DNA from: an uncultured archaeon
Lineage (GTDB): Archaea > Thermoproteota > Nitrososphaeria_A > Caldarchaeales > Wolframiiraptoraceae
Reading direction: 5' to 3'
DNA length: 64,000 nucleotides
NCBI GenBank assembly: GCA_938083505.1
Contig: CALKCF010000001.1
Location: 17,388 to 81,387 of the forward strand
The notes beneath the pieces were generated by a model. That model was given only the letters and a program-made list of their open reading frames with translations, was not told the origin of the DNA and ran no database searches. Below, in pieces: positions 2,490-61,029 of the stretch. The translations under genes were made by a program, and so were the position numbers. Every line of letters begins with the position of its first letter. Within the stretch, counting starts at the first letter, position 1.

Positions 2490-2566
2490 GCCGCCGTAAC
2501 TTAGCCTGGCCAGAGTGGGGGGCTCATAATCCCTTGGCGTGGGTTCAAATCCCACCGGCGGCACCA
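2490..2566 (+). tRNA. tRNA-Met (anticodon CAT), intron-less, CCA encoded
   Basis: Hand-folded: acceptor GCCGCCG/CGGCGGC, D stem ACTT/GAGT, anticodon loop CUCAUAA, T arm GTGGG-TTCAAAT-CCCAC, discriminator A, then CCA. Confidence 0.85.
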
Positions 2567-2849: not shown

Positions 2850-2988
2850 GATCCAGTCTATTGTTACAATATGAGGATTTGTATAAAAATTTTAGCTAAA
2901 ATTCTGAAATTCGAAAATGGAAGAAAAGTCCGCAGATATCTATAACTAAAAAGAAAGATTTAATTAGCAACCCATCAACAAAATATTT

Positions 2989-4857
2989 TTGATGTCAGAG
3001 GTAATATTAAAAGTTGATTTAACGAAAGGAGCCATTACTAAAGAAACAATTGATCCAAATATTCTGAAAAAGTTCATGGGCAACAAAGGACTTGCCGCAT
3101 ACTACTTGTTTAATGAGATACCGCCAAGAGTTCCTGCATTCAGTGCCGAGAATAAGGTAGCTATAATGTGTGGCCCCCTGATAGGTACTGTTGTACCTAG
3201 CTCTGTAAAGTTCTGTGTGGCAACAAAGTCGCCCCTTACTGGAGGTTGGACCGATGGGTACGCGAGCGGGACATGGGCTGATATGCTAAGGGCTGCGGGC
3301 TACTATGGTATAATAATTGGAGGCATAGCTGAGAAGCCGACTTATCTTTACATAGAGGACGATAAGGTTGAGCTCCGCGATGCATCTGACATATGGGGTG
3401 CAAACACTTACGAAACGATAAGGTTATTGAAGGAGAGGCACCGCTCCGATATAGAGCCTAGAGTTTTGACGATAGGTCCTGCCGCTGAAAAGCTAGGGCT
3501 TATAACGACAATCATAGCTGAGTACAGGGCTGCGGGCCGTGGTGGTGTCGCCAGCGTCCTAGGTTTTAAGAAGCTAAAGGCAATAGTCGTTAAGGGTCAC
3601 AAGGAGGTAAAAGTTGCAAACCCAGAGAAACTAGAGGAAGCGGCAAAGGCTGCTAGGGAGAAGCTGATAAAGAACCCAATAACCGGTGCGAGAGGAAGGC
3701 ACCAGCAGATGGGCACATCGAACATAGTGCTTGGTGTGAATGCGGCAGGTGCCCTTCCGACTAGGAACTTCCAGACAGGAGTCTTCGAATATGCAGAGGA
3801 GATAAGCGGTGAGAGCTTCAGGGACACACTGTGGATGGGAGGAAGTAGGAGGAGGCCATGTCCAAGGTGCATAAACCAATGCACACATCTTGCTGTCATA
3901 GAGTCCGGAAAGTGGGCAGGAATTGTGGACGAGGGACCTGACTACGAGAACCTAGTTATGCTCGGCTCAAACTGTGGTGTTGCAGACAAGAACACGATAG
4001 CGACAGCTGAGTTCCTCTGTGACGTCTACGGTCTTGATGGTATATCGGCAGGAAACACGATAGGCTTCCTGATGGAGTGCTTCGAGAAGGGCCTAATAAC
4101 AAAGGAGGATACTGATGGCGTAAACCTTAGGTTCGGTAACGAGGATGCGCTAATAGAGGCGCTGATTAGGGGAGGGACCATCACAGGTAAGCTCGGCAAG
4201 CTCGTTGCAATGGGTGTAAGAAGGGCAGCAGATGTGATAGGCCAAGGATCGCAGAAGTTCGCGATGCATGTTAAGGGACTGGAGATGCCGGCTTACGAGC
4301 CTAGGGCTGCGTTCGGCATGGGACTTGCCTATGCAAGGTCAGATAGAGGTGCCTGTCACTTAAGACCGTGGACGTTTGGAGCAGAATGTCTGGGCCTTGC
4401 ACCTAGAGAGGTCCCGTATTTACCGTACGATACGCAAGGAAAGGGTGCATGGGTCAAGACGTTGAACGATGTGTTTGCTACCGTACACTGCACCGGTGTC
4501 TGTCTGTTCATCGCTTTTGGCATAGATGCCGTTGAGGATATATTGCCGATGGTCAATGCTGCGACAGGTTTCAACTACACAACTGAGGAATACCTAAAGG
4601 TCGGAGAGAGGGCGAACAACCTGACGAGGGCATTCTGGTTCAGAGAGGTGAGCGACTTTGGAAGAGATTACGACACGTTACCATGGAGGTGCCTGCATGA
4701 GCCGCTACCGTCAGGCCCGGCAAAGGGTAAGACCGTTCCTCTGGAGCCGATGTTGAACGACTACTACAAAGCATCTGGATGGGATGCAAACGGCAAGCCG
4801 ACGAAGGCTAAGCTACAAGAGCTTAGTTTAGACTTCGTTATCGATAAGATTTATTAA
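2989..4857 (+). CDS. aor: tungsten-containing aldehyde:ferredoxin oxidoreductase family enzyme
   Basis: 622 aa. Both the N-terminal AOR_N domain and the C-terminal pterin-binding domains are recognisable, including cysteine ligands for the 4Fe-4S cluster. Confidence 0.85.
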   Translation: MMSEVILKVDLTKGAITKETIDPNILKKFMGNKGLAAYYLFNEIPPRVPAFSAENKVAIMCGPLIGTVVPSSVKFCVATKSPLTGGWTDGYASGTWADMLRAAGYYGIIIGGIAEKPTYLYIEDDKVELRDASDIWGANTYETIRLLKERHRSDIEPRVLTIGPAAEKLGLITTIIAEYRAAGRGGVASVLGFKKLKAIVVKGHKEVKVANPEKLEEAAKAAREKLIKNPITGARGRHQQMGTSNIVLGVNAAGALPTRNFQTGVFEYAEEISGESFRDTLWMGGSRRRPCPRCINQCTHLAVIESGKWAGIVDEGPDYENLVMLGSNCGVADKNTIATAEFLCDVYGLDGISAGNTIGFLMECFEKGLITKEDTDGVNLRFGNEDALIEALIRGGTITGKLGKLVAMGVRRAADVIGQGSQKFAMHVKGLEMPAYEPRAAFGMGLAYARSDRGACHLRPWTFGAECLGLAPREVPYLPYDTQGKGAWVKTLNDVFATVHCTGVCLFIAFGIDAVEDILPMVNAATGFNYTTEEYLKVGERANNLTRAFWFREVSDFGRDYDTLPWRCLHEPLPSGPAKGKTVPLEPMLNDYYKASGWDANGKPTKAKLQELSLDFVIDKIY

Positions 4858-4878
4858 ATCCCCACCTTTTTATATTTT

Positions 4879-5175
4879 TTGGTGAAGAAAAATTTGGAGG
4901 CGGTAGCCGAGAAAGGGGAAGTTATTGTTAAGTTCATGGGTGTTTTGAGGGATACTGCAGGTCCAGAGATTATGGTGCCCATCAAGGGCAAATCAAGGAT
5001 ATCAGACGTTTTGCAGGATGTTCAGAAAAAGCTTGAACCCTTGATGGATAAAAACCTGTTGAGTAAAATATTGAAGTATTCTAGGCTCGTGCTGAATGGT
5101 GTCTATGCGCCCGATGAGGCAGAGATAAAACCTGGCGACGTTTTGATGATAATAAGCCCTGCAGCTGGAGGATAG
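4879..5175 (+). CDS. MoaD/ThiS-fold ubiquitin-like small protein ending in Gly-Gly (SAMP-like)
   Basis: 98 aa with a TTG start and a C-terminal ...ISPAAGG followed by a stop. It sits immediately downstream of the tungstopterin enzyme gene. Confidence 0.6.
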   Translation: MVKKNLEAVAEKGEVIVKFMGVLRDTAGPEIMVPIKGKSRISDVLQDVQKKLEPLMDKNLLSKILKYSRLVLNGVYAPDEAEIKPGDVLMIISPAAGG

Positions 5176-46140: not shown

Positions 46141-47487
46141 TCATTCTCCTAATTCTGCACTAAACATACGCTTTGGTAACTTCAAAGGAGACCTTTTTAT
46201 AGATTTTATCATCCTTTTTAATAAATTATATTGTTGGAGGAGGTGTTTAACATCCTTCTCGGTCACACCCGATCCTCTAGCTATACGTCTTATCCTCGAG
46301 GAGTCTATAATGTGAGGGTTCTTCCTTTCCTCAGGCGTCATAGAAAGTAAAATCGCCGACCATTTTTCGATCTGCGTCTCAACCTTTTCGAATTCCTCGT
46401 CAGGTATATTGGGAAGTCCAGGTAAAGGTAACTTCGATATTATTTTCTTCAAAGGTCCTAATTTTTTCATTTCTTTAAACTGTTTTATAAAATCTTCTAA
46501 GGTAAACTTCCCGCTTGTAAAACTCTTGAGCCTCTCCTTGTTAAACTCCAACTCGGCAATCTTTACTCTTTCTAGTAAACCCTTTATGTCGCCTATACCT
46601 AAGAGCCTACCGATGAAGCCTTGTGGGTTAAACACTTCTATATCTTCGAGTTTCTCACCAGTTCCGATAAATTTTATCTGTGCTCCAGTGGCCGCCACGG
46701 CCGATAGTGCACCACCACCTTTCGCAGAGGTATCCATCTTAGTGATTATTATAGAACCTATTGGTGTTGCTTTGTGAAATGCCTCAGCATGTGCACCAGC
46801 CTGTTGACCTATCGTTCCATCCAACACCAACATTATTTCGTTAGGTTTAATGTTTTCCTCTAACATCTTCATCTCTTGCATTAGCGATTGTTGATCTTTG
46901 TGTCTACCAGCCGTATCTATAATTATAACGTTGCATTTTTGTTTGGATAGACATTCAACACCCTTTGTGGCTATAGTAATAGCATCACGCTCTTCAGGTA
47001 GGCCGTAGACAGGTATGTCTTTCCCATCAAGGAGTTGTCTTAACTGTTCATATGCTCCAGTTCTGAATGTGTCAGCGCAGACTACACCTACCGAGTAACC
47101 CAATTTCTTGAGATAATTTGCCAGCTTTGCAACTGTAGTTGTTTTTCCGTGTCCTTGTATGCCAACAACCATGATTACGTATTGTTTAGATTTATCTATG
47201 GTAATCTTATAGGGCTTCTCACCTATCAGCGATATAAGTTCCTCGTACACTATTTTTATAATTTGATCTTTCTTGGAAATACCTGGTGGAACTTTCTCTG
47301 TCAATGTCCTATTCCTTATCTTCTCCGAGAGTTTCATCACGAGCTCAACATTTACGTCCGAGACCAGGAGAGCTCTTTGTATGCCTCTTATGAGTTCCTC
47401 GACGACATTTTTATCTACACCTGTTGCAGACATGAATTTGCTTATGGCCTGTTTTATGAGTTCACCGAGCGAAGTTATCGGGTTCAA
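46141..47487 (-). CDS. srp54: signal recognition particle protein SRP54
   Basis: 448 aa. The N and G domains (GIQGHGKTTT, DTAGR) and the Met-rich M domain are present. Confidence 0.9.
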   Translation of the reverse strand: MNPITSLGELIKQAISKFMSATGVDKNVVEELIRGIQRALLVSDVNVELVMKLSEKIRNRTLTEKVPPGISKKDQIIKIVYEELISLIGEKPYKITIDKSKQYVIMVVGIQGHGKTTTVAKLANYLKKLGYSVGVVCADTFRTGAYEQLRQLLDGKDIPVYGLPEERDAITIATKGVECLSKQKCNVIIIDTAGRHKDQQSLMQEMKMLEENIKPNEIMLVLDGTIGQQAGAHAEAFHKATPIGSIIITKMDTSAKGGGALSAVAATGAQIKFIGTGEKLEDIEVFNPQGFIGRLLGIGDIKGLLERVKIAELEFNKERLKSFTSGKFTLEDFIKQFKEMKKLGPLKKIISKLPLPGLPNIPDEEFEKVETQIEKWSAILLSMTPEERKNPHIIDSSRIRRIARGSGVTEKDVKHLLQQYNLLKRMIKSIKRSPLKLPKRMFSAELGE

Positions 47488-47550
47488 GGCTTAAGTAATA
47501 CTCTGAAATCTAATAATAAAGGTTGCTCAAGAAGTATTTATCCTCAACGA

Positions 47551-48552
47551 GTGCATAAGGGGGTGGTGCCGCATTTGAACAGCAAAAGAACAGCCCTAAT
47601 AGAGGGTAGTTATGTCGAGGTAGGAGTCGGTGTGATATTTGCAGTAAAGGGTGTATCACATCCACCTAAAGGAGTTATAGCGGTTCCAAAGTATATAAAA
47701 ACAGAAGGTTCGGTCGTCAAATTGAACAGTTTCAATTCCTCGGTGTATTTTCTCAGGAGACATTTTCGTGAGTTTTTAATACATGACGAGTACTTAGGCC
47801 AAGAGATACCGTTTGTACCTTTAGAGGAAGTTAAGCGAGTTTACGACCCGATCGATGGAAAGAATTATTTGAGAAAAGATGCGATATCGAGCATTGCCCT
47901 TAAAATGGTGGAGCTAATTGTTGAGAACTCCGGAATAGAGAGCGACTTCGTTGGCATATCAGGTTCTATCCTTTTAGGTCTTTATAACGAATTCTCTGAC
48001 ATTGACATTGTAGTTTATGGTATAAAAAATTGTTTGAAAGTTTATGACGCCCTAAAACTTATGCGTGAAAATAATATAACTGAACATCTTTCTGAAGGTT
48101 TCTTAAAAAAAATCTTGGAATCTAGATCTGACACGCTCATGGAACCTATCGTGTGGATGATGCATGAAAAAAGAAAACTTACAAACGGAGTATTCATGGG
48201 AAGACCATATACACTAAAACTCACTCCTCTTCCAGAAGAATTTTGGGACAAATACGGAGAGCGCCGTTTTAAGGAAATCGGTAGGGCCATCATACGCTTC
48301 CAAGTAAGTGATGCTTCAAAGAGCATCTTCACACCTTGTCGTTATGAGATCAAGGTGATTAGTATAATCAATGGACCGGAGATTTCGTCGAAGGTATCTT
48401 CGATCGTTTCATTCAGAAGTAGATTTGCCGAACAGCTTCGCGAAGGTGAAGTTGGTATAGCTTCAGGAAGGCTTGAATTATCAAACGATGAGAGGTTAAG
48501 ATTATTTATCGGAAATGATCCACATGACCTTTTAATGGTCGATTCGTCTTGA
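47551..48552 (+). CDS. pol-beta-superfamily nucleotidyltransferase-domain protein, tandem paralog 1
   Basis: The minimal NTase motif is GISGSILLGLYNEFSDIDIVVYG (G-S x11 D-I-D). The start is chosen at the in-frame GTG 47551, because the longer ORF from 47149 runs antisense through srp54. Confidence 0.6.
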   Translation: MHKGVVPHLNSKRTALIEGSYVEVGVGVIFAVKGVSHPPKGVIAVPKYIKTEGSVVKLNSFNSSVYFLRRHFREFLIHDEYLGQEIPFVPLEEVKRVYDPIDGKNYLRKDAISSIALKMVELIVENSGIESDFVGISGSILLGLYNEFSDIDIVVYGIKNCLKVYDALKLMRENNITEHLSEGFLKKILESRSDTLMEPIVWMMHEKRKLTNGVFMGRPYTLKLTPLPEEFWDKYGERRFKEIGRAIIRFQVSDASKSIFTPCRYEIKVISIINGPEISSKVSSIVSFRSRFAEQLREGEVGIASGRLELSNDERLRLFIGNDPHDLLMVDSS

Positions 48553-49592
48553 GAAGGTTTAGAGACAAAGATTATGTTGAGACATATGAAGAGCGGTTCT
48601 TCTGTGTAGTAGGTGAAAACCATCCTCATGATAGACTTATTGCATATTTGAAGTACTTGCCGGGCGATGGTGCATGGTCACGGCGAGGAAAAAGTTTCAC
48701 GAGAGTCATACGTAGTTATTCGATGCAAGAGTTAGTTGATACGATAAATTTTCTTAAGAAAAATAAACCTGAGTATGTTTTTTACGACGAAACGATAGCT
48801 ACTGAGATGTCTTGTGTTCCACTTAACAAAGTGTTAAAATACTATAGATGCGACAAGAGATTACGTGAGATATTAAAGGATGATAGGTTAGATGAACTTG
48901 AGAGCAAAGCTAAGGAATTGGTGGAATCAATAGTAAAAGTTTCTGGTATAGACGTTAAAAACATGGGAATCACCGGCTCAATACTTTTAAAAATACATCA
49001 TCTGAATTCGGACATAGATCTTGTTGTATATGGAAAAAACAACTTTTGGAAAGTGTTACACAACTTATACTTGATTAATGATATTAAACCCCTCGACGAG
49101 TTAAGATTAAACGAGTGGATTAAGAGGATAAGTGCAAAATATCCTATTTCTATAGATATAATATCGAAGCTGGTAAAGTTGGTAAGGAACAAATACATTT
49201 ACAAAGGCACACCTTTCTCGATTCATGGTGTCAGATTAGATGAAGAAGTGACAAGAAGTTATGGTGAAGTTATTTACCGTAAATTAGGTCTTGCTAAAAT
49301 AAGGGCAGTAATTTCTGACGCATCAGAATCTTGTTTCACACCGGCTATTTATAGACTATCTAACGTGGAGACAGAACAAGAATACGCTAAAGATGTAGAA
49401 ATACTGGCATGTTTTGATGGAACATTCACAGCGATGTTTGATGAGGGTACATATATAGAGGCTTTCGGAAAGGTCGAGCGCGTTATGGAGCTAAAAAGTG
49501 GGCGCGTATTTAAATGGTTGCTAATCGGTACGTTTGAAGGTATGGACAAAGAGTATATTATTCCGATTAAAGAAGCACCTTTACCTCATTAA
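48549..49592 (+). CDS. pol-beta-superfamily nucleotidyltransferase-domain protein, tandem paralog 2
   Basis: The NTase motif is GITGSILLKIHHLNSDIDLVVYG. It shares blocks with paralog 1 (YVE...HP...IA..KY, ISDAS.S.FTP..Y). Its ATG overlaps the paralog-1 stop (ATGA). Confidence 0.65.
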   Translation: MRRFRDKDYVETYEERFFCVVGENHPHDRLIAYLKYLPGDGAWSRRGKSFTRVIRSYSMQELVDTINFLKKNKPEYVFYDETIATEMSCVPLNKVLKYYRCDKRLREILKDDRLDELESKAKELVESIVKVSGIDVKNMGITGSILLKIHHLNSDIDLVVYGKNNFWKVLHNLYLINDIKPLDELRLNEWIKRISAKYPISIDIISKLVKLVRNKYIYKGTPFSIHGVRLDEEVTRSYGEVIYRKLGLAKIRAVISDASESCFTPAIYRLSNVETEQEYAKDVEILACFDGTFTAMFDEGTYIEAFGKVERVMELKSGRVFKWLLIGTFEGMDKEYIIPIKEAPLPH

Positions 49593-51216
49593 GTACCCTA
49601 TTCTGTATCCACAGTGGTGTCCAAGGCATTAGTAGCAAGGCATACTTACCCTCAGCGGCACTCTTCAGAACATCTTTGCTTCCAACAGATAGGTATCCAG
49701 ATAAAAGATAGCGCGCATACTCTACCGATTTATTTACATCAAGATAGTGCCCTATGTAAAGCAAAACCTCTGTCAAGTCCCATACCTTATCACCATTAAA
49801 TGAGGCCTGTTCTAAGTCTACTATGTAAACTTTGTCTCCTGATATTATGAAGTTTTCAGGTTTACAATCACCCAACGTGATGTCATGTTGATGAATTTTT
49901 GCTAATTCTCTCCCAACCATAAACGCAGCTCTATTTAACACGTTTTGTTCACTTCCCGACATCCACATTTGCATAAGATCCTGCCCTTCAATGAATTTCT
50001 GGAACAACATCTTCTTCTTCCAATTTATATGATATATATCGGCTGTATTGAAACCAAGTTCCGCAAGCTTATTAACAAAGTAAATCTCATTAGAAAGCCT
50101 GACATCAGCTATGACCGAGAAGTTCTTCATACCAATAGTCCAGACCCTAGCCGCTACCCACTTCAGGTCCGTCCAGTTAATATATTTCTTAACAAAAACC
50201 CTCTCTTCTGAATCTTTTGTTCGGATTATGATGACATAAGTCGAGTTAAGCATCCGACCTATCTTCTTTATAAGTATCTGACTTCTGTTCACATTATAAA
50301 CTCGTTCAACGAAGTCCATGATGTCGAATCGTTCTTTTAACGGTTGTTTCCCTATGGCAGTTTTTATGAACACGTATTCCTCCGGATCAGGAAGGTCGTT
50401 TTCAGTTTTGTAAAATAGTGACCTCCTGATTTTTGAGTATAATTCCTCTGCTATGATGCGTGGATTAAAGCGTCCTGCATAACCATGCACGAGATACATT
50501 TTAAACATCTTTTCGAAATCATAAACTTTTTTAGCAAACTTATTCGCTTGGTTTAAAGTTGAAAGTATGAACTTGTTAGAAAGGCGATAATACTCACCAT
50601 CCTTGAGTAGAAAACCCTCAGATTCTAAATCAGCTAAGGCTAAGTAAAATCCTTTCATACAAATTTCTGTATTAACCTTCTTATAAGGTGCAGAAAATAT
50701 CTTCGAATAACTATAACGCGCCGGCGGATACATCAGAGCCCTTCTCCTTAACTTCTCGAAGAGAAAGTATTCAGGCTGCATCAAAAGCTCGTTTGCAGCC
50801 ATTCTGTGCTCCAGTATTAGATTCTCACATAATTCCAACACAACATTTTTCTTGTAAGTCTTGTCAAATTCTTTCAAAAGTGTGACACCTATAATAGGAT
50901 AAAACGGTGTTAGAAGTCTTCCTGCCACAAATTCTCCAAAAGAGCCGTTTCTCACATCATCCCTCATGATATTTTCATCAACCGCTAAAATGGCAACTGT
51001 AGGTTCAAAATTTCTTAGATAGTAGTATTTTATACCCTCCTTGAATTTTTTCACGATACATAACACATCCAAATCGCTACTCTTCAAAGAGTAGCCAGAA
51101 AGTTGAGAGCCGTAAATGCAAAGGCACGATATGTCATCTTCCTTAAAGATACTTTTCGAGGCTTCAAGTGCTATTTGAGCTAACATATTAAGCCTATCCT
51201 CTGGAATTGCATACAT
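49567..51216 (-). CDS. nucleotidyltransferase (ANT/KNTase-like) N-domain fused to protein-kinase-like (APH/Kdo-kinase/RIO-like) C-domain
   Basis: 549 aa. The N-terminal NTase motif is IYGSQLSGYSLKSSDLDVLCIV. The C-terminal 200 aa carry VFVKKY (candidate ATP-binding Lys), a catalytic loop HQHDITLGDCKPENFII and a metal-binding IVDLEQA (DFG-equivalent). Confidence 0.65.
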   Translation of the reverse strand: MYAIPEDRLNMLAQIALEASKSIFKEDDISCLCIYGSQLSGYSLKSSDLDVLCIVKKFKEGIKYYYLRNFEPTVAILAVDENIMRDDVRNGSFGEFVAGRLLTPFYPIIGVTLLKEFDKTYKKNVVLELCENLILEHRMAANELLMQPEYFLFEKLRRRALMYPPARYSYSKIFSAPYKKVNTEICMKGFYLALADLESEGFLLKDGEYYRLSNKFILSTLNQANKFAKKVYDFEKMFKMYLVHGYAGRFNPRIIAEELYSKIRRSLFYKTENDLPDPEEYVFIKTAIGKQPLKERFDIMDFVERVYNVNRSQILIKKIGRMLNSTYVIIIRTKDSEERVFVKKYINWTDLKWVAARVWTIGMKNFSVIADVRLSNEIYFVNKLAELGFNTADIYHINWKKKMLFQKFIEGQDLMQMWMSGSEQNVLNRAAFMVGRELAKIHQHDITLGDCKPENFIISGDKVYIVDLEQASFNGDKVWDLTEVLLYIGHYLDVNKSVEYARYLLSGYLSVGSKDVLKSAAEGKYALLLMPWTPLWIQNRVLNEVKVLL

Positions 51217-55506: not shown

Positions 55507-56274
55507 CTATATTTTGAAGCCTGCCTTCTTAAGAAATTTCGATAATTTTTCGTACTTCTTTTCTACCTCTTTCGTCTTTTCTATCTTTGCTATAAAATAA
55601 TCTTTGTATTTCATAGAAATGCCTGCATACTTCATCAAGTAACCCTCCTGATCATACGTTTCTGAAGATTCTTCGACGTAGTTGGCAATCTCATACGAAT
55701 TCGGCTCCCGATACTTGTTTTTATGAAACACTATATGTAACGGCCATCTAGGCCTTTTAGGTGGCAACTCATCCTTTTCACCTATGCAAAGAAGACCAAT
55801 AGGAATTACACCTTTCGGGAGTTCTAACAAGGCCGCCACCTGTTCCGCCTCAACAAGCACGCAATCAAGTAAAGCGGTGCCGAAGCCTAAAACCTCGGCA
55901 GCAATTATCATGTTCTGGGTTGCGAGCCCTGTCTCGAATATGCTATATATTACCTCGACAGGATGTTCATTAGAAGTCAAAACATGGTTGGGGTTAAGGT
56001 AATTAAACATTTTATTAACCCTATTAAGGTCACTACATATGACTATTATCGCAGAGGCGTTTGATATGTACTTTATACCACAAACCTCCTCAAGTGCTCT
56101 CCTTTTTTCCTTATCGCTGACAAGTATGAACGAATAAGCCTGATTATATGATGGTGCTCTTTGACCTGCCTCCACTATCATGTGAAGTATATCTTCTGGT
56201 ATGTCGGCGGGCTTAAACTTTCTAATCGTCCTTCTGTTATATATGAGGTTTAGCAAACTCCTAGTTATGCTCAT
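55507..56274 (-). CDS. nitroreductase-family flavoprotein
   Basis: The N-terminal RRTIRKFK motif and an FMN-binding fold are present, with a C-terminal extension of about 60 aa. Confidence 0.7.
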   Translation of the reverse strand: MSITRSLLNLIYNRRTIRKFKPADIPEDILHMIVEAGQRAPSYNQAYSFILVSDKEKRRALEEVCGIKYISNASAIIVICSDLNRVNKMFNYLNPNHVLTSNEHPVEVIYSIFETGLATQNMIIAAEVLGFGTALLDCVLVEAEQVAALLELPKGVIPIGLLCIGEKDELPPKRPRWPLHIVFHKNKYREPNSYEIANYVEESSETYDQEGYLMKYAGISMKYKDYFIAKIEKTKEVEKKYEKLSKFLKKAGFKI

Positions 56275-60945: not shown

Positions 60946-61029
60946 TGCCGGGGCTGGGATTCGAACCCAGGATGGCCTACGCCAGTGGGTCTTAAGCCCA
61001 CCCCCTTGACCAGGCTCGGGTACCCCGGC
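60946..61029 (-). tRNA. tRNA-Leu (anticodon TAA), class II with long variable arm, intron-less
   Basis: On the reverse complement: acceptor GCCGGGG/CCCCGGC, anticodon loop CUUAAGA, variable arm about 15 nt, T arm CTGGGTTCGAATCCCAG, discriminator A. Confidence 0.85.

Follow-up and report, generated by a model that had tools for sequence, protein, structure and literature searches.

Methanopterin-type pterins serve as one-carbon carriers in methanogenesis, anaerobic methane oxidation, the archaeal Wood–Ljungdahl pathway, and bacterial methylotrophy. Methanopterin contains one phosphodiester, which joins the ribose-5-phosphate of its side chain to hydroxyglutarate, and methanofuran has neither a phosphodiester nor a nucleotide-derived bond. 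To our knowledge, no enzyme has been assigned to the side-chain steps of methanopterin synthesis, namely the addition of ribose phosphate and the esterification with hydroxyglutarate. The closest described chemistry is that of the enzyme pairs CitG/CitX and MdcB/MdcG (EC 2.7.7.61 and 2.7.7.66): CitG enzymes transfer a 5-triphospho-α-ribosyl group from ATP to a hydroxyl, and in the reaction of CitX and MdcG a hydroxyl attacks the α-phosphate with loss of pyrophosphate (PPi). Here we describe two adjacent nucleotidyltransferase (NTase) genes, A (47551..48552) and B (48549..49592), both on the plus strand of a stretch of 64,000 nucleotides (nt) of an uncultured archaeon of the family Wolframiiraptoraceae (order Caldarchaeales), referred to below as the window. 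Their products diverged long ago within an uncharacterised group of the Pol-beta NTase superfamily (the NTase-OB family below), which we propose, with moderate confidence, to work in the biosynthesis of tetrahydromethanopterin (H4MPT)-type carriers. The open-access literature that was searched contained no description of this NTase family and none of any NTase in methanopterin biosynthesis.

Pairwise comparison of the two products, of 333 amino acids (aa) for A and 347 aa for B, gave a single BLASTP alignment of 309 columns with 29% identity (E 3e-31). A first-pass annotation of the window had called the genes tandem paralogs with conserved N- and C-terminal blocks outside the NTase motif; the alignment bore this out, and all of the peptides quoted for the blocks were found in the translations. 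When the parts were compared separately, E values of 6e-10 for the N-terminal ~105 aa (Smith–Waterman z 13.7 against 500 shuffles), 1e-15 for the NTase core, and 2e-9 for the C-terminal ~100 aa (z 14.7 against shuffles) were obtained, and the similarity between the helical inserts alone was not significant. Because the N- and C-terminal parts were each significant on their own, the similarity reaches well beyond the NTase motif and lies far above chance.

Homologs, annotated merely as “hypothetical” or “predicted nucleotidyltransferase,” were listed in Caldarchaeales, Bathyarchaeia, Thermoprotei (Ignisphaera, Desulfurococcaceae, Sulfolobales, and Thermoproteaceae), Nezhaarchaeales, Methanomethylicia, Culexarchaeia, many Asgard lineages, and a few bacteria; these listings comprised the best 80–150 entries. 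A profile search of 1.84 billion representatives recovered 1889 clusters at E ≤ 1e-3, 706 of them at E ≤ 1e-30. Four clades, A (40 sequences), B (81), C (12), and D (10), emerged when 143 sequences from the species-representative loci were scored with hidden Markov models and placed in a distance tree. The two genes of the window were placed clearly, gene A scoring 396 bits with the A-type and 178 bits with the B-type model, and gene B 440 bits with the B-type and 228 bits with the A-type model. The A-type and B-type proteins form separate clades, each with members from both TACK and Asgard archaea, so that the duplication is indeed ancient, as had been proposed. Clades C and D were seen mostly in Bathyarchaeia, as another tandem pair. 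This C–D tandem was seen adjoining B at 2910–5024 (minus strand) of locus L027 and also in loci L029, L034, L035, L044, L054, L071, L074, and L079. The family may correspond to COG1665 (“predicted nucleotidyltransferase”), of which neither the literature searched nor a published classification of NTases made mention; nothing here relies on that identity.

The AlphaFold2 models of A (pLDDT 93.4, alignment of 75 sequences) and B (pLDDT 94.4, 86 sequences), both with a pTM of about 0.9, follow a common plan: a beta-rich N-terminal domain of ~100 residues comes first, the Pol-beta NTase core and its helical insert follow, and an OB-like barrel of five strands forms the C-terminus. In A, the secondary structure of the model places the N-terminal domain at 47599..47862 (residues ~17–104, with the invariant VKG..HPP, i.e., K33, G34, H37, and P38), the Pol-beta type core with its insert at 47863..48255 (residues ~105–235), and the barrel, with the motifs FTPCRY and SFRSRF, at 48256..48543 (residues ~236–331). 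The corresponding parts of B lie at 48561..48884 (residues ~5–112, with invariant H25, K35, Y36, W43, R52, and Y57), 48885..49262 (residues ~113–238), and 49263..49568 (residues ~239–340), all on the plus strand. The N-terminal domain holds the most conserved residues of the family outside the core, the invariant His-Pro among them. Its fold had been described as unknown, in agreement with which no Pfam, NCBIfam, or PDB match to it was reported; the OB-like domain, clades C and D, and the metabolic context were missed by the first-pass annotation. Neither A nor B is spanned in full by a Pfam or NCBIfam family or a PDB chain, and the NCBIfam scan returned no model for either. Searches of all PDB chains with A, B, and the family profile gave nothing relevant (best E 0.2–0.8, unrelated proteins), and Foldseek found no full-length structural analogue in the PDB and no match at E ≤ 0.001.

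Membership in the Pol-beta NTases is indicated by a profile score that reaches the gathering cut-off of Pfam for NTP_transf_2 (PF01909) and by the NTase α/β fold. The first core strand ends with the hG[GS] motif, which reads GISGS in A (47953–47967, residues 135–139) and GITGS in B (48966–48980, residues 140–144), and the [DE]h[DE]h metal pair on the second strand reads DIDI in A, within SDIDIVVYG (47995–48021, residues 149–157), and DIDL in B, within SDIDLVVYG (49008–49034, residues 154–162); these are the positions given earlier for the two motifs. G140, G143, and S144 were invariant in clades A (40 sequences), B (81), and D (10) and could also be seen in each of the 12 sequences of clade C, which have His-Gly-Ser instead of Thr/Ser-Gly-Ser, and D155 and D157 were conserved at 100% in all four clades. 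The earlier statement that the catalytic site is intact in both copies is thus borne out for two of the three canonical positions only: the G-S and DxD motifs were present in 40 of 40 A-type and 81 of 81 B-type sequences, but the strand after the insert, where the third carboxylate is expected, carries no canonical acidic residue in A ([FT]x[RK]) or B (SxH, S224 and H226). The same strand reads VxN in clade C and ExE, found nowhere else, in clade D. Given these systematic differences, the paralogs are not redundant. E233 and E310, which are conserved in all four clades, could substitute for the third carboxylate. In lacking the canonical acidic residue, the two proteins differ from the minimal and terminal NTases of the Pol-beta type (PF01909; GLD-2, TUTases, Pol X, and kanamycin NTase); they also have a long helical insert as well as N- and C-terminal domains that those enzymes lack.

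The placement of the family in a pathway relies on its gene neighborhoods. A set of 80 species-representative GTDB loci was located with the B-family alignment, open reading frames (ORFs) within 6 kb of B were clustered, and the recurrent clusters were annotated. At least one H4MPT or methanofuran gene lay within 6 kb of B in 47 of the 80 loci, compared with a rough chance estimate of ~15% for a random stretch of 12 genes. The commonest neighbor was a gene of the CitG family (PF01874, 221.8 bits), found in 20 loci and often in the same operon. It was followed by Ftr (17 loci), an MptN-like RimK ligase (9), FwdA (8), FwdB/D (8), DmrX (TIGR02700, above cut-off; 7), MfnB-like genes (7), Mch, FwdC, and the MJ0301-type DHPS-like TIGR00284 (6 each), and Mtd, MptA (TIGR00294), MfnE-like, and MfnF/TIGR03123 genes (5 each).

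The arrangement of these genes varied between lineages. In Asgard archaea, all five genes of the order DmrX> DHPS-like> MptA> A> B> were present in L073, L076, and L083, and shorter versions, in which MptA or DmrX/DHPS-like was shifted or missing, were found in L065 and L072; the shorter variants belong to Helarchaeota and one Bathyarchaeia locus. The order CitG> B> was found in Ignisphaera (L024, L030, L038, L050), and in Bathyarchaeia CitG> A> converged on B (L014, L042, L044, L052). An A> B> pair was followed by FwdD/B and FwdA in L020 and L041, the MptN-like gene adjoined B in L023, L037, L043, L058, L066, and L081, and in Desulfurococcales and Sulfolobales (L033, L046, L062, L068, L077) B stood beside MobA-like, MfnB, MfnE-like, MfnF-like, and HisA/F-related genes. 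Such variation between lineages speaks for selection rather than inherited synteny. A DUF1464 protein (ASKHA/butyrate-kinase-like and weakly similar to “methanogenesis marker 12”) was also encoded near methanopterin genes and A> B> in L065, L072, L073, L076, and L083; its gene immediately precedes DmrX in L076 and L083 and MptA in L072, and in L073 it lies two genes ahead of DmrX. The protein is another candidate for the methanopterin pathway.

In bacteria, an A-type gene was embedded in an 18-gene cluster of a Syntrophaceae metagenome-assembled genome (MAG; L089), with the order RFAP synthase-Mtd-ATP-grasp-FwdD-FwdB-FwdA-DHPS-like-Ftr-FwdC-[A]-Mch-RimK-CitG-...-MfnF-MfnE-MfnB. In another bacterial locus (L088), the genes after A encode a DHPS-like protein, DUF447, and RFAP synthase. 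On a bacterial-looking MAG contig (L086, 5626–7143), the protein P0232 is a fusion that combines HPPK (PF01288, 137.7 bits) with an A-type NTase, and genes for an AfpA/DmrX-like flavoprotein and then for a DUF6513 and pterin-binding (DHPS-like) protein lie downstream.

A further recurrent neighbor is a multi-pass membrane protein of ~400 aa, encoded directly upstream of A> B> in L016, L019, L026, L034, L040, L063, and L067; its similarity to ECF riboflavin-type S components is weak (E 1.6e-4). In L019, L026, L040, and L067, the membrane gene-A-B set is accompanied by a divergent gene for an HTH-PfkB-family kinase, and ECF T and ATPase genes were observed near the membrane gene in L023 and L047. 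Together, these genes may form a module for the salvage or transport of a cofactor precursor.

Several of these observations could also be accommodated if the two enzymes served a different step or cofactor in the same neighborhood, such as methanofuran biosynthesis, nucleotide activation in the pterin branch alongside HPPK and the DHPS-like enzyme, or the salvage of an imported precursor, for which the membrane protein of ECF type and the PfkB kinase would be partners. This explanation, which we regard as rather unlikely, agrees with the position of B beside MfnB, MfnE-like, MfnF-like, and HisA/F-related genes in Desulfurococcales and Sulfolobales, with the fusion of A to HPPK and its proximity to DHPS-like genes, and with the membrane gene preceding A> B> in seven loci and the divergent kinase gene in four. 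However, no bond in methanofuran, whether phosphodiester or nucleotide-derived, would call for an NTase, activated pterin is already supplied by HPPK, and the top neighbor, the CitG-like gene of 20 loci, points to the ribosyl-phosphate part of methanopterin.

Within methanopterin-type biosynthesis, the step that would best fit the chemistry of an NTase is the formation of the phosphodiester between the α-ribose-5-phosphate of the side chain and (S)-2-hydroxyglutarate, since NTases act at α-phosphate bonds and methanopterin has one such bond, methanofuran none. In the proposed sequence, a CitG-like enzyme would use ATP to place a 5-triphospho-α-ribosyl group on the ribitol of the precursor, the hydroxyl of hydroxyglutarate would attack the α-phosphate within the NTase, with PPi leaving, and the MptN-like ligase, a frequent neighbor, would add glutamate afterwards. 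A and B might act as a heteromer or carry out two consecutive phosphoryl transfers, activation and then transfer, in a manner resembling F420 synthesis. More tentatively, the NTase-OB family and the archaeal CitG-like enzyme might perform these late methanopterin steps, the attachment of α-ribosyl-5-phosphate and the esterification with (S)-2-hydroxyglutarate, by CitG/CitX-type chemistry, with A and B (C and D in Bathyarchaeia) dividing activation and transfer or decorating variants of the cofactor. The orf7 of methylotrophs is, we assume, a CitG homolog. The methylotroph gene islands for dephospho-H4MPT (dH4MPT) include orf7, and no nucleotidyltransferase is listed in them; dH4MPT is without the phosphate and the hydroxyglutarate. 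Both points are consistent with the proposed step.

The likeness to CitG/CitX and MdcB/MdcG lies in the CitG-family gene being the commonest neighbor of the NTase-OB family and in the putative reaction itself, an alcohol attack on the α-phosphate of a 5-triphosphoribosyl compound with release of PPi. CitX and MdcG are presumably NTase-fold proteins as well. In contrast to those systems, no acyl-carrier-protein acceptor (CitD/MdcC), citrate lyase, or malonate decarboxylase was present among the annotated recurrent neighbor clusters, the acceptor proposed for NTase-OB is a small hydroxy acid and the donor a pterin derivative, and the NTase-OB proteins have an additional N-terminal domain and an OB-like barrel. 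A second, purely mechanistic parallel is offered by CofC and CofD of coenzyme F420 synthesis: there, too, a phosphodiester joins a hydroxy acid to a cofactor, and an activate-then-transfer scheme would explain the presence of two related enzymes. A MobA-like gene, of the superfamily to which CofC is related, adjoins B in several loci; however, the folds of CofC and CofD are unrelated to NTase-OB, and no 2-phospho-hydroxyglutarate kinase was identified.

The tandem arrangement was tallied over the 80 GTDB loci and the window, with flanks of at least 1.2 kb required for A to be scored as missing. A lay directly upstream of B on the same strand in 28 of the 81 loci, the two genes were convergent in 6 and divergent in 2–3, a non-adjacent A was found at a distance of up to 4 kb in about 7, and no A was present in the flanks in 27; in the remaining loci, the contig was too short to judge or A was truncated at its edge. 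The A> B> tandem extends across Caldarchaeales, Bathyarchaeia, other TACK lineages, and seven Asgard lineages. Its spacing was short in 27 of the 28 tandem loci (−4 nt in eight, −1 in one, and 2–50 nt in the others, save one gap of 341 nt and two uncertain start calls). Among the loci without a nearby A are those of Ignisphaera, whose A and B genes occupy separate loci, and those of Desulfurococcaceae, Sulfolobales, Nezhaarchaeales, and Methanomethylicia. In two Ignisphaera loci (L004, 7094–7606; L005, 4132–4689), an unpaired A-type gene was followed by a gene for formaldehyde-activating enzyme (Fae), and an ORF for a Cas12f1-like TNB-domain protein, the remnant of a transposon-associated nuclease, was observed ~1.3 kb upstream. 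In the bacterial clusters examined, A occurred alone within the available flanks. The view that the duplication has been kept as an operon is therefore correct in that A> B> is the commonest arrangement and has short gaps, but the arrangement is not universal. The question of whether homologs always occur as pairs is answered in the negative by the 27 adequately flanked loci and the bacterial clusters: with A and B convergent, divergent, or unlinked elsewhere, pairing is common, not obligatory.

These counts bear on a further reading, which grows out of the suggestion of a heteromer or a pseudoenzyme in the first-pass annotation: that one of the two copies has become a regulatory pseudoenzyme within an obligate heteromer. 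The wide distribution of the tandem, the tandem order of the C–D pair, and the differences at the third-carboxylate strand (Arg/Lys in A, Ser-x-His in B, Asn in C, Glu-x-Glu in D) would suit such a division of roles. It nevertheless appears improbable, as the G-S and DxD motifs are conserved at 100% in all four clades, A is found without B in the bacterial clusters, B is found without a nearby A in the 27 loci, and no A–B fusion protein was detected among the 150 best representatives. A comparable heterodimer of paired paralogous NTase folds is that of the DZF proteins NF45 and NF90, and NF90–NF45 was among the weak Foldseek matches. The DZF domains, however, have lost their catalytic residues, whereas A and B retain the invariant G-S and DxD motifs, and their pairing is not obligatory.

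The C-terminal barrel raises another explanation, in which A–B is a nucleic-acid enzyme, for example a heterodimeric terminal NTase involved in the tailing, repair, or modification of RNA, tRNA, or single-stranded DNA, with the OB fold holding the single strand. An OB fold more usually suggests a nucleic-acid substrate, and for this reason we retain the explanation, at a low probability. The matches to such enzymes are at the level of the fold only, the best core alignments covering ~100 residues at 9–15% identity, a resemblance that all Pol-beta NTases share. A and B lack Pfam domains for PAP/OAS substrate binding and for the CCA body and tail; the helical insert and the OB-like barrel follow the core instead. 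Outside Caldarchaeales, moreover, the gene context is overwhelmingly that of cofactor metabolism and not of RNA processing, and a nucleic-acid enzyme gives no rationale for the HPPK fusion.

A number of results weigh against the assignment to methanopterin-type biosynthesis. Within the window, no H4MPT or methanofuran gene was detected (tblastn with 20 representatives), the coupling to the CitG family is absent and present only at orthologous loci, and methanopterin or methanofuran neighbors were found in none of the 10 Caldarchaeales loci. The Wolframiiraptoraceae genome paper contains no discussion of pterin one-carbon carriers. Classical euryarchaeal methanogens were absent among the matches listed, the named ones being TACK, Asgard, and a few bacteria. 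Those methanogens make the hydroxyglutaryl phosphodiester. The fact that no Pfam or NCBIfam model exists is a further hint that the family is missing from long-studied genomes. No significant similarity to CitX or MdcG (PF03802, PF10620) was obtained: A and B had no match, and one of 53 members matched MdcG with an E value of 0.013. The neighbors mix methanopterin and methanofuran biosynthesis genes, and the association thus indicates the neighborhood of the pathway and not the step. In addition, the third-carboxylate strand carries Arg/Lys in A and Ser-x-His in B, OB folds more often bind nucleic acids, and the occurrence of A alone in bacterial clusters argues against an obligate A–B heteromer.

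In the window, gene A starts with GTG at 47551; the public gene call P0100, whose protein is identical to that of gene A, starts at the GTG at 47563, four codons later. A mechanically called ORF (47149–48552) extends 402 nt further upstream into the 5′ end of the SRP54 gene on the opposite strand, and because of this overlap its part at 47149–47550 is an artefact, with the gene beginning only at ~47551. The junction had been given as an ATGA overlap, but the bases at 48549..48552 (plus strand) read TTGA: gene B starts with TTG and overlaps the TGA stop of gene A (48550–48552) by 4 nt. The same TTGA junction recurs in the loci of all five species of Candidatus Terraquivivens (L006–L010). Such a stop–start overlap likely leads to co-translation of A and B. 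A TATA-like A/T-rich element, TAATAATAAAGG, read from the sequence at 47511..47522 (plus strand), lies in the intergenic stretch ahead of gene A (47488–47550), 29–40 nt upstream of the GTG at 47551, and is possibly the promoter of a leaderless or short-leader A–B transcript. In this genome, both proteins would be made from one transcript, with B starting at the TTG in the stop codon of A.

Upstream of the pair, on the minus strand, genes for an RNA polymerase subunit-like protein, L21e, Pus10, and SRP54 (46141–47487) form an archaeal housekeeping setting. The closest relatives of A and B are proteins with 72–79% identity in the five Terraquivivens species (Caldarchaeales, formerly Aigarchaeota), whose loci have the same gene order as the window on both flanks; the locus is thus native. 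Its base composition is unremarkable, and horizontal transfer or a mobile island was rejected on the grounds of this ordinary composition and the conserved synteny. A role as an anti-phage or signaling NTase (CBASS, cGAS-like) or as an MNT module of a toxin–antitoxin system is extremely improbable for the same locus. PADLOC reported nothing for A, and its match to B was at the motif level (E 0.009); the synteny is stable over six Terraquivivens species with ordinary composition, no effector or HEPN partner is encoded nearby, and the context of the family is metabolic. The defense-system explanation was rejected on the PADLOC result.

On the minus strand, a gene of 549 aa (49567..51216) converges on gene B and overlaps its 3′ end by 26 nt. 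According to Pfam and NCBIfam, its product is an NTase–kinase fusion with an N-terminal Pol-beta NTase domain and a C-terminal Bud32/RIO/Kdo-kinase-like domain. The gene adjoins B in L006–L008, L010, L012, L015, and the window, and in a distant relative (L091, 8322–9932) a homolog with 32% identity (E 1e-83) immediately precedes A> B> in the same orientation. The fusion may be a lineage-specific partner, a constant neighbor in Caldarchaeales despite rearrangement. A nitroreductase-family gene (55507–56274, minus strand; best NCBIfam match below cut-off) was observed ~6 kb downstream in the window, and such a gene is located directly downstream of B in L017, L018, and L039, two labeled as Bathyarchaeia and one from an unclassified uncultured archaeon; a link with the A–B pair is possible. 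ARAGORN and Rfam detected two RNA genes in the window, tRNA-Met(CAT) at 2490–2566 (plus strand) and tRNA-Leu(TAA) at 60946–61029 (minus strand), both far from A and B, and no others.

The original observation on these two genes is of more modest value: the ancient duplication is true and the operon conserved, but pairing is not obligatory. The interest of the locus is its membership in a large unnamed NTase family of four paralogs that comparative genomics ties to the biosynthesis of methanopterin-type cofactors. Labels such as “hypothetical protein” or “nucleotidyltransferase domain” in many archaeal MAGs mask this family and its new architecture. Because its genes are found inside cofactor gene clusters in Asgard archaea, TACK archaea, and some bacteria, and in one case are fused to HPPK, the NTase-OB family, with ~700–1900 clusters and no Pfam or NCBIfam model or solved structure, is a concrete and testable candidate for an unassigned step in the synthesis of the cofactor.

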